Shown here piece after piece: positions 21,001 to 24,000 of a DNA stretch of 39,177 nucleotides. Origin of the DNA: a virus (Duplodnaviria; Heunggongvirae; Uroviricota; Caudoviricetes); IMG/VR virus record IMGVR_UViG_2778261068_000002, positions 1-39,177 of that record. One strand, written 5' to 3'. How positions within the stretch are numbered: position 1 is the first letter of the stretch; each line of letters starts with the position of its first letter. The position numbers are program-made.

Positions 21001-24000
21001 GCTCTCGCTTCATAGTCGCTGAACGTTGTTTTCGGGTCGTAGTCTTCCTTGTACATAACCGACAACATTTCTTCATTATCAAGCCAGACACTGACCTTGC
21101 TGCCGATTCTTTTCGTCAGCACAGGAGCACCACCTTTCCCGACTTTCTCTCTTGATGCCATATGCCCTGGAAACTCTACAGTAACCACCGCACGACTTAT
21201 GTCATCCCCGACGTTTTTTTCCTGCCCTGCGCGCCTGGTGTTGGCTTTAACTGCACTATCAAAACCCGCAAGATGAGGACGATCGTGTTTATTGGCAGAA
21301 TTTTCAATCTCAATGGAGTACTGATGCTGCAGATAAGACTCAACTTTTTCTGACAATTTTTCTGCCACTCCCAGGAGGACCTGCCTGACGCTCATTCTGG
21401 CTGCTGCCTCATAAAACTCCAGCGCGGCACCTTCAACACGGTCCAGCGAGATGTCCAGGTCAAAAATTTCACCGTCAAAGCGTTTTTTGTCCCGTAACGC
21501 TAAAGTTACCGTAACTTTATTCTCAAAATTGCAGATCCCTTTCACAATCAGTTCATAGTTTTGAGTCATTGAATTACTCTCCCCGCGCAGCCTTACGCTT
21601 GTCTTCTCTGATTTTGAAGTACAGATTTGTCAGATAAGTCAGGAAGCCCAGAACCAGACTCCCCAGCACACCAATCGCAGCCCACTGTGACGGACTGACC
21701 TGATCAAGCCACTGTAAAAACCAGTAGCCAGCACTGCCTGCGGAGGTGCCGTAGGCAATGCCCGTTGAAATTTTGTCCATGGATTTCATAGCCTCACCTC
21801 CGCAAATAACGGATGGCGTAGTTTTACACTGAGAGATGAAAGGGATTTGAAAAGAAAAGCCCGCAAAAGCGGGCGAAATTGGATCTACAGTCAGGAAAGC
21901 ACTCTATCCAACAAACCACCCACAGTTAATCGGAATAAAAGCAGAGTGCTTATGAATGATCGCCTGCCCGAAGGTTGTTATTCCTGCACAGCAATTTTGC
22001 AAAAAAGACGCTCATTCATAACCCAAACGTCTTTCAGTCACTCCGGACTTTCCCATCATCGCAGACTGAAAGGCTCTAACTGGAGCGGGCAGCGGGAATC
22101 GAACCCGCATCATCAGCTTGGAAGGCTGAGGTAATAGCCATTATACGATGCCCGCATATGGTGCCGACTACCGGAATCGAACTGGTGACCTACTGATTAC
22201 AAGTCAGTTGCTCTACCTACTGAGCTAAGTCGGCACTGGACCGTCACCGAGGACTCGAACCTCGCACACTCAACTTAGAAAGTTGATGCTCTTTCCTGAT
22301 GAGCTAGTGACGGCTGGTGGCCCTTGCTGGATTTGAACCAGCGACCTGGCGATTATGAGTCGCTCGCTCTTACCACTGAGCTAAAGGGCCGAGCGAGGAA
22401 TGATAATCATATCTAACAAAGGCTGCAATCCCCCCATGACAAACCTGATTCACTCCTATGCTTTGATTACAATTCAATAACAATATGCAGTCTGCCATCA
22501 AAAAAGCAACACCTATGTTACTCCAAGGATATTTTAGCGTACTCGAACCACATTAATCTCAAAGCTATCAGTACGTCCTATGTTATATATGATAAAATTT
22601 TTACTGCTATCATTGAACGATCTGGATAACACCAAACGATCATCATAACGAGCAAGAACATAATACCAGATATTCTCATAGTAGAGAGTCTGATATTCTT
22701 TCTTAAACTGAGGTTTATACCAACCAGCAATAAGTGAAAATGCCCAGAAATAAAGCATAAATCCGACCATAACACACTCAATCCTGTGATGACGAATAAA
22801 AGACACTTCTGCAATACATTTAATAGAAATAAATCTCCTACTTAATCTGATAAACAATGTAATTATTAATGCGGAAATAATACACAATATCAGTGCATCT
22901 GGTACAAACTGTTGATGAATTACTGAAAACTCCAGAGCGAGAGGAACAAAAAGCAGTAGTATCGCAAGAAAAAGTCTAATAAAACTCAAATCCTGCATAT
23001 TATTTTTTTGTTTAATACCCAGAAAAAAAACAACACCAATTCCCCAGCCCATCAGGAATATGACAATAACAGTAACAGCATAAAACAAACTTCTGGCTAC
23101 ATCATCAGCACCAGCCCCGACAACCCACCATGGAAATCCGTAGTAAAAGGAAGTGCCCCAGCCATAAAAATAAGCACTCCCCCACCCAAGAAATCCCATA
23201 TAGGCAATAAAAAGCGAAGACTCTCTGAGTAGTGCACCACCCTTCATAACCACCTCAACACAAGATGATAACATTTGGCTCACAACTCATAGCAAAAGCA
23301 ATTCAATGTCGTCAAGAGAATGCAGGCTAAAAAACATCACATAGCAGCCAGCATGTTTACCGTACAAGTACAACTCAGGGCATAAAAAAACCCACTCGGC
23401 AGCGGGTTTATACATTTTTTACAACATACCAAATTTGCATGAAGTATATGGCTTTTAATCCAGTTTTGCAATATGTTGCTGTAAAAATGCTGCTTTTTGT
23501 TTTGAACGTGTTCTCGTTACAAGCAATAAAGCTTCGCTATCAAGCTGTAGAAAAATGTGCTTCATTGCAACCCAGCGTTCAGTGAATGTCTCAGACCAGT
23601 TTTTTGATGTCACTCCCACCAGCGATGCCAGCTCCTGGTATTCATAGGTCTTACGCCCTGCCAGCTCGTTCTTCGCATCCTGTGCCGCCAGCCAGATCAA
23701 CTTCTTCAAACGTTCCAGTGTCTTACCTGCAATTTTTCTGGTACCCAACAGAGTCTTAAACTCGCTCCATGCCCACTGCGTTATGGTGACCTGATGTTCC
23801 CAGCGAACACTTTCACTGTAACTCCACAGCAACCACGCTTTCTGATGTTCTTCGAGAGACAGAACCGCGCGGCGCCATGAAGAGGTTGAGAACTCAACCT
23901 GGCTGACCAGTGCAATGGATGAACCTTTTGCGTACGACTGCTTACCGGAAATCGGCGGATTATCCAGCGTAATCATCCTGCCAGTTACCTCATCCAGAAT

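Follow-up and report, generated by a model that had tools for sequence, protein, structure and literature searches.

A four-gene tRNA cassette between the antiterminator gene Q and the lysis genes of a lambdoid prophage

Transfer RNA (tRNA) genes placed 3′ of the late antiterminator gene Q form a known class of cassettes in lambdoid phages. In the Shiga toxin (Stx) phages 933W and VT2-Sakai, ileZ-argN-argO occupies a site in the late operon 3′ of Q, the late promoter PR′ and the terminator tR′, and the order ileZ-argN(UCG)-argO(UCU) is followed by stx. Phages SfI, Sf6, ST64T, PS3 and P21 carry tRNA genes (Asn-GUU and/or Thr-UGU) downstream of Q, and for SfI, Sf6, ST64T and P21 the published rationale is a bias in ACA codon use between phage and host (PMC3636060). 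A third group, the Ile-Lys-Thr-Gly arrays of RefSeq, is found in non-Stx lambdoid prophages, e.g., those of Escherichia coli APEC O1 and strain 4/4, and in the phages PhiR47_1 and vB_EcoS-689R5. Here we describe an array of four tRNA genes, Ile2(CAU), Arg(UCU), Thr(UGU) and Gly(UCC), in the IMG/VR virus record IMGVR_UViG_2778261068_000002, analyzed over its full length of 39,177 nt (hereafter, the window), which is a lambdoid (lambda-like) prophage. The array belongs to the class of post-Q lambdoid tRNA cassettes; what sets it apart is its rare recombinant composition, including an argN-type gene with a UCU anticodon.

The Stx-phage array lies at the same site, and its first tRNA is 75/76 like that of the window while the second is about 80% like it; however, argO (UCU) is absent from the window, where copies of thrU and glyT are found instead. 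The surroundings differ as well. The window array has ORF249, a membrane protein gene, upstream and a terminator and holin gene S directly downstream, whereas the Stx-phage tRNAs stand upstream of stx; ORF249, between tR′ and the tRNA promoter, holds the place that stx has relative to Q in Stx phages. The initial annotation of this locus, made from the sequence alone, had placed ileZ-argN-argO at this position in Stx phages and described the present array as different in composition. The Stx-phage array is indeed present in VT2-Sakai and the composition does differ, but the first half of the window array is homologous to ileZ-argN, and the two are not separate arrays at the same place. The cassettes of SfI, Sf6, ST64T, PS3 and P21 occupy the same niche and share Thr-UGU with the window, while the partner tRNAs and the number of genes differ. 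The Ile-“Lys”-Thr-Gly arrays have the four-gene architecture of the window, its spacers, its promoter, its Thr and Gly genes, its terminator and its S holin, and differ from it in the allele of the second tRNA (tRNA #2) and in the upstream module (Q type, ORF249, LpxR). The evidence set out below makes it probable that the window carries a functional four-gene tRNA-supplementation cassette, transcribed from a promoter of its own and also as part of the Q-dependent late transcript.

Identity of the four tRNA genes

ARAGORN detected exactly four tRNA genes across the window, all on the minus strand and arranged head to tail (Table 1). The same four were found with Rfam RF00005 (gathering score, 29 bits) at E-values from 4e-14 to 7e-9, each match spanning model positions 1-71. 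Both programs therefore return the four genes, with the late strand and the anticodons, that the initial annotation had placed at 22081-22390. The spacers between them are G, GT and TAT, i.e., 1, 2 and 3 nt, which agrees with the 1-3 nt separation noted before, and the CCA end is encoded in all four genes. An Rfam scan of 21500-24700 at a permissive E-value returned no further RNA family; the plus-strand “Plastid-ycf2” matches are antisense images of the tRNAs, and a snoZ105 match fell below the gathering score. The array is confirmed as four genuine tRNA genes, to be annotated Ile2(CAU), Arg(UCU), Thr(UGU) and Gly(UCC), the first of them not Met.

The modifying enzyme TilS tells tRNA-Ile2 from tRNA-Met by the pairs C4:G69 and C5:G68. 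Both pairs are present in the acceptor stem of the CAU tRNA (GGCCCTT/AAGGGCC). Compared with K-12 tRNAs, it is identical to ileX at 68/76 positions and to metT/metU at 54/77; relative to ileX it has a compensatory change at pair 6:67, and the two anticodon loops are the same. It differs from ileZ of VT2-Sakai at a single base (75/76), and PGAP labels homologues with 75/76 identity as tRNA-Ile. The ileX-like body, the retained C4:G69 and C5:G68 pairs, the near identity to ileZ and the PGAP labels support the assignment to Ile2, which had been proposed at the outset, and this tRNA is expected to need lysidine at C34 in order to read AUA. The “Met” label given by ARAGORN is due to the unmodified anticodon.

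The last two genes of the array are of host type. The tRNA-Thr(UGU) is identical to K-12 thrU (76/76) and the tRNA-Gly(UCC) to K-12 glyT (75/75), and both are also 100% identical to the chromosomal copies of Salmonella. In K-12 these base-for-base identical genes belong to the thrU-tyrU-glyT-thrT-tufB operon; in contrast, the phage array lacks tyrU, thrT and the host spacers and flanks, and its Thr and Gly genes are 3 nt apart.

The identity set of E. coli arginyl-tRNA synthetase (ArgRS) comprises A20, C35, U/G36 and A/G73, with A20, C35 and U36 as the main elements and the purine at position 73 as a minor one. tRNA #2 has A at position 20 of its D-loop (AUCAGGAAA) and the anticodon U34-C35-U36 within the loop UUUCUAA. 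The arginine elements A20, C35 and U36 are thus present, and the purine discriminator is absent, U73 being found here as in all members of the argN family. The gene aligns over 77/77 nt with the annotated argN of Stx phages at 79-80.5% identity, stands second in the array as argN does, and has in common with argN the C1:G72 pair, U73 and the D-arm, whereas its identity to host argU is 55/77. Its anticodon is UCU and not UCG as in Stx-phage argN; UCU is also found in the NU14 and ECCNB12-2 alleles. Among 20 distinct members of the argN family the cloverleaf is 95.7% paired, compared to 28-52% with slid partners, and four pairs are compensatory. The high pairing, together with four pairs that changed on both sides, points to tRNA-type constraint on the argN scaffold.

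A different explanation for the array is counter-defence. Here the phage tRNAs would be nuclease-insensitive substitutes for host tRNAs cut by anticodon nucleases that hosts or rival elements carry, such as PrrC, PARIS AriB, colicin D/E5 or retron effectors, a concept established for the T5 tRNA-Lys against PARIS and proposed more widely (PMC11464382, PMC10264068). The body and anticodon stem of tRNA #2, quite unlike argU, would suit such a role, and the argN lineage swaps its anticodon loop unusually often (UCG, UCU, UGG, and UUU with C33). However, the Thr and Gly tRNAs match those of the host base for base, so that a sequence-specific nuclease would cut both alike, and the Ile2 anticodon loop is that of ileX; an altered anticodon stem-loop, as expected for nuclease evasion, is thus lacking in Thr, Gly and Ile2, and only tRNA #2 differs from the host (argU). 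PADLOC found no tRNA-targeting defence gene adjoining the array, and the anticodon set is already explained by the match to codon use described below. For the array as a whole we consider counter-defence very unlikely; limited to tRNA #2 and its C33 relatives, it is conceivable.

Expression signals and codon demand

A putative sigma-70-type promoter (TTGCAG-17-TATCAT) precedes the first tRNA, with a GC-rich, 9-nt discriminator (TCCTCGCTC, 22399-22391) between the −10 hexamer and the tRNA +1. The initial annotation had called a promoter here plausible, and conservation now speaks for it: the motif keeps a constant spacing to the first tRNA in 11 upstream classes, any two of which are <80% identical. 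Averaged over pairs of these classes, identity is 0.27 upstream of the −35 hexamer (beyond −39), 0.64 within that hexamer, 0.46 across the spacer, 0.72 within the −10 hexamer and 0.54 in the GC-rich stretch before +1. By these values, homology across the classes sets in at the −35 hexamer, and both hexamers are better kept than the spacer. The same motif is found upstream of the tRNAs of VT2-Sakai (TTGCAG-17-TATTAT). In the Sakai Stx2 phage, differential RNA sequencing (dRNA-seq) recorded a transcription start site (TSS) in the homologous region that appears to drive its tRNAs; the cultures were uninduced, and the authors mention that a lytic subpopulation was present (PMC7547250). We infer that the window promoter is active without Q. 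A second “promoter” with 10/12 consensus matches, called by the consensus scan at 22167-22140, was rejected, as it is the TATAAT of the glyT D-arm.

Downstream of the array, the terminator that the initial annotation had described is present as a GCCCGC-UUUU-GCGGGC hairpin (21874-21859) followed by a U-tract, 70 nt upstream of the S start codon (21789). Of the features of a moron-type cassette, the array has a downstream terminator and, upstream, a candidate promoter in the conserved motif, whose homologous region in Sakai has a mapped TSS. A weaker hairpin with a U6 tract (22003-22035), missed by the consensus scan owing to its 9-nt loop, may act as a first terminator or in processing. Between tRNA-Gly and the main terminator there is also a hairpin CUUUCAGUC...GACUGAAAG (22030-22075, minus strand; ΔG −15 kcal/mol), and the 291-nt leader after tRNA-Gly folds better than shuffled sequences (z −2.6). 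The hairpins 3′ of tRNA-Gly may be processing signals, termination signals or a small RNA (sRNA). In the VT2-Sakai comparison locus L109 (4073-4332), Rfam places the sRNAs STnc100 and AsxR downstream of stx2B; a permissive Rfam scan of 21500-24700 in the window, which includes the matching region, gave no equivalent of either.

On the upstream side, a PR′-like element overlaps the 3′ end of Q, and its placing relative to Q and tR′, as in lambdoid phages, suggests that it serves as the late promoter. In L105, a hairpin resembling tR′ directly abuts the tRNA promoter.

Combined, these signals suggest how a tRNA-supplementation cassette of this kind could work. It would add copies of minor E. coli tRNAs, i.e., Ile2 (AUA), Arg-UCU (AGA/AGG), Thr-UGU (ACA/ACG) and Gly-UCC (GGA/GGG). 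Its own sigma-70 promoter would be active in the lysogen and soon after induction, and the resulting transcripts would end at the 21874-21859 terminator, so that holin S would not be expressed. After induction, RNA polymerase modified by Q would start at PR′ and, reading through both tR′ and the cassette terminator, transcribe ORF249, the tRNAs and then the lysis and structural genes. RNase P would cut the polycistronic precursor at each 5′ end, and the spacers of 1-3 nt and the encoded CCA would leave short 3′ trailers for exonucleolytic trimming. Lysidinylation of the CAU tRNA by host TilS would allow AUA to be read, and the charged tRNAs would presumably confer a fitness benefit.

Codon use supports a demand for these tRNAs. 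The 11,330 codons of the window were compared with 42 annotated K-12 coding sequences (CDSs; 14,748 codons). AGG and AGA, both read by the Arg-UCU of the array, are enriched 8.2-fold and 7.6-fold; AUA, read by Ile2, 3.8-fold; ACA, read by Thr-UGU, 2.6-fold; and GGA, read by Gly-UCC, 2.5-fold. The four tRNAs thus read five of the seven most window-enriched codons, each with p<1e-11. The other two, CGG (3.5-fold) and CGA (3.2-fold), have no reader here and are the codons of the UCG argN allele of Stx phages. AUA, AGA and GGA had been named as rare in E. coli, and their frequencies in the K-12 set are 2.4, 1.2 and 6.0 per 1000 codons. It had also been proposed that such codons are used more often in the AT-rich cargo genes beside the array. 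This holds for ORF249, with AUA, AGA and GGA at 24, 24 and 20 per 1000, but AUA and AGA are not specific to cargo, since early genes are equal in this respect. Per 1000 codons, AUA stands at 19 in cargo, 12 in early and 3.8 in late genes, and AGA and AGG together at 21, 25 and 9.8, respectively; the head protease/capsid open reading frame (ORF), 660 codons long, contains neither AUA nor AGA. Demand for Thr (ACA/ACG) and Gly (GGA/GGG) codons is about 25-35 per 1000 in all gene groups, roughly twice that of the host. The peak of AUA and AGA demand in the early and cargo genes fits Q-independent expression of the cassette, and the split in demand, Ile2 and Arg in early and cargo genes and Thr and Gly everywhere, predicts when each tRNA matters.

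The same data can be read from the side of the lysogen. The cassette might be kept mainly to raise minor tRNAs in the lysogen, as a form of lysogenic conversion that would aid AT-rich acquired genes (LpxR, ORF249, sodC, other islands) over lytic growth. Its promoter is separate from PR′, its terminator shields S, the Sakai TSS comes from uninduced cultures (with the lytic subpopulation mentioned above), AUA use is highest in cargo genes, at 19 per 1000, and moron-type genes, LpxR and sodC, lie in the window. However, AUA and AGA are just as frequent in the early lytic genes, so that a benefit to the phage fits equally well, and the cassette, lying within the late operon, would be strongly boosted upon induction. 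Lysogenic conversion as the main reason for keeping the cassette is compatible with all the data and differs from supplementation of the phage mainly in who profits; we regard it as unlikely, though less so than counter-defence.

Several points weigh against a functional supplementation cassette. The −35 hexamer has only 3/6 consensus matches, and for this reason the consensus scan did not call the cassette promoter. tRNA #2 has the unusual combination of C1:G72 and U73 and the lowest score of the four (53.5 bits). Phage use of the supplemented codons is 2.5 to 8 times that of host core genes, but the 42-gene host reference is small and some of its genes are highly expressed, which inflates the enrichment ratios; moreover, rare-codon enrichment is general in acquired DNA, so that a codon match is expected and not specific. 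Lastly, most relatives have a UUU/C33 tRNA #2 and are thereby without an AGA reader, and AGA supplementation is evidently dispensable there.

Mosaicism and the argN lineage

Arrays of the four-gene Ile-“Lys”-Thr-Gly type with 92-96% identity to that of the window are found in about 495 of 5,426 complete E. coli genomes (about 9%) and in several sequenced phages. The exact array allele of the window occurs in none of the 5,426 genomes and in none of the INPHARED phages. For tRNA #2, the best identity in the 5,426 genomes and the phage collection is ≤92.2%, and identical copies were found only in the IMG/VR contig L091 and the metagenome contig L114. A degenerate tRNA #2 pattern matched one UCU-allele contig in IMG/VR (L091) and two loci in the GTDB representatives, both with the UUU allele; an exact-allele pattern matched one contig of the metagenome collection (L114).

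The informative sites fall into two blocks. Between the promoter and the 3′ end of tRNA #2, the window agrees with L091/L114 at 34/34 informative sites, and from the Thr D-loop onward it agrees with the common type, L001, at nearly all of them. This switch marks the array as a recombinant whose crossover, at about 22243-22220, falls between tRNA #2 and the D-loop of the Thr gene. L091 and L114 cease to be homologous to the window exactly after the last base of tRNA-Gly (edge at 22080). The internal crossover and the end of homology at the tRNA-Gly edge indicate that the array is both a unit and a site of exchange.

Such mobility invites the view that the cassette is a hitch-hiking relic, which would persist only because recombination carries it along at the mosaic junction that separates Q from the lysis genes, with no present benefit, even if the tRNAs may still fold and be made. 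A junction inside the array and homology of relatives ending exactly at its 3′ edge fit this view, and relatives do carry decay-like features, i.e., C33, an A:C mismatch in the T stem, a 1-nt deletion in L107, an aberrant 82-nt copy, and arrays shortened to one or two tRNAs. In the window, however, all four genes are intact and canonical, the compensatory stem changes in tRNA #2 and Ile2 argue for purifying selection on structure, the promoter hexamers have changed less than the spacer, and the anticodon set fits codon demand. We therefore think it improbable that the array is such a relic, to about the same degree as counter-defence, and continue to favor a functional supplementation cassette.

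Most of the difference between the window and the common arrays lies in tRNA #2. The anticodon loop is UUUCUAA (U33, UCU) in the window, compared to CCUUUAA (C33, UUU) in the common form; the T stem is fully paired in the window, while the common form has an A51:C63 mismatch; the acceptor pair 4:69 is U:A in the window and C:G in the common form; and the Rfam score of 53.5 bits in the window falls to 44 bits in the common form (about 9-10 lower). Of the 103 loci matched by the degenerate tRNA #2 pattern, 101 are of the UUU/C33 type (98 of them with the loop CCUUUAA) and two have the UCU loop; no U33/UUU or C33/UCU intermediates were seen among the alleles compared. The relatives annotated by PGAP as “tRNA-Lys” are argN derivatives with an aberrant C33 loop. 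The window tRNA #2 has an anticodon stem otherwise confined to the UUU/C33 clade. Since the outgroups and the window have U33/C35, and the window has the derived anticodon stem of the UUU clade, parsimony suggests that the UUU/C33 loop is derived and that the window keeps the ancestral arginine anticodon. Across E. coli prophages the argN scaffold carries four anticodons, UCG, UCU, UGG (in phage TL-2011c) and UUU, the last with the non-canonical C33.

Genomic neighborhood and implications

Table 1. Features of the window from the nin region to the first lysis gene.
Feature	Position	Strand	Evidence or remark
NinG	27067-26462	minus	
NinI-like phosphatase	26465-25800	minus	
LpxR-family lipid A deacylase	24629-25588	plus	Pfam PF09982, E 3e-39; antisense, between NinI-like phosphatase and Q
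Antiterminator Q	23455-24228	minus	Pfam PF06323, E 3e-93
PR′-like late promoter (TTGCAA-17-TATACT)	23443-23471	minus	overlaps Q 3′ end
tR′-like intrinsic terminator, Q antitermination target	23388-23409	minus	consensus scan; fold ΔG about −12.9 kcal/mol
ORF249, membrane protein	22534-23283	minus	phrog_1521; between tR′ and tRNA promoter
Putative sigma-70-type cassette promoter	22400-22428	minus	−35 TTGCAG 22428-22423, 17-nt spacer, −10 TATCAT 22405-22400
tRNA-Ile2 (CAU), ileX/ileZ type	22315-22390	minus	ARAGORN (as Met); Rfam 72.5 bits
tRNA-Arg (UCU; AGA/AGG), argN lineage, tRNA #2	22237-22313	minus	ARAGORN; Rfam 53.5 bits
Recombination (mosaic) junction inside array	about 22220-22243		informative-site comparison
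tRNA-Thr (UGU)	22159-22234	minus	ARAGORN; Rfam 73.8 bits
tRNA-Gly (UCC)	22081-22155	minus	ARAGORN; Rfam 64.9 bits
Weaker hairpin and U6 tract	22003-22035	minus	fold ΔG −12.1 kcal/mol, z −2.55
Intrinsic terminator, cassette-holin S gap	21849-21874	minus	consensus scan; ΔG −13.7 kcal/mol, z −3.2
Holin S, phage 21 type	21574-21789	minus	Pfam PF04971, E 1.4e-35; first lysis gene 3′ of cassette

The product of ORF249 is a multi-pass membrane protein, and the gene has about 36% GC and is rich in AUA, AGA and GGA; it had no match in Pfam, NCBIfam or PADLOC. Homologues with 76-78% amino-acid identity stand in the same place in APEC O1 and ECCNB12-2, while strain 4/4 is without the gene. The LpxR-family gene is AT-rich and an apparent moron, and the same module is annotated in many prophages of Shiga toxin-producing E. 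coli (STEC) with about 94% identity.

Holin S is followed on its 3′ side by a DUF1327 protein, lysozyme and Rz, and then by terminase, head and tail genes. The DUF1327/YdfR-like gene in the gap between holin and lysozyme (20838-21569, minus strand) encodes 243 amino acids, compared to about 105-116 in relatives; the DUF1327 match is limited to the first ~95 residues, and the remainder is an extra C-terminal part. A plus-strand ORF at 21847-22134, overlapping tRNA-Gly, was treated as spurious. At the far end of the window, a gene for a sodC-like superoxide dismutase precursor (3173-3694, plus strand; phrog_1975) adjoins the tail-assembly genes. Beside it (415-3145, plus strand) are a 674-amino-acid ORF at about 60% GC and a 159-amino-acid ORF, neither of which had a match in PHROGs, NCBIfam or PADLOC, and the prophage seems to have had its tail-fibre end replaced or truncated. 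A role for the array in tRNA-dependent lysogeny, where a phage tRNA replaces a gene disrupted by integration (PMC10865867), was also considered and dropped, as the attachment sites lie outside the window and nothing pointed to it.

The window is a clean case of an apparently self-promoted tRNA cassette lying after Q and ahead of the lysis genes, where a terminator would guard the lysogen from holin expression. The junction inside the array shows that conserved tRNA genes can act as crossover points in lambdoid mosaicism. Current understanding of such cassettes is unchanged by these findings, and the anticodon plasticity of argN, the one open-ended lead, concerns the relatives more than the window itself. 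It is a speculative and rather unlikely proposition that the argN body repeatedly switches decoding identity and that the window allele is the closest surviving precursor of a natural Arg-to-“Lys” anticodon switch. If the switch were adaptive, the lineage would show alloacceptor tRNA remodelling occurring naturally in temperate phages, and the widespread UUU/C33 form could, for instance, be a tuned decoder or a tRNA-Lys that resists PrrC or PARIS.

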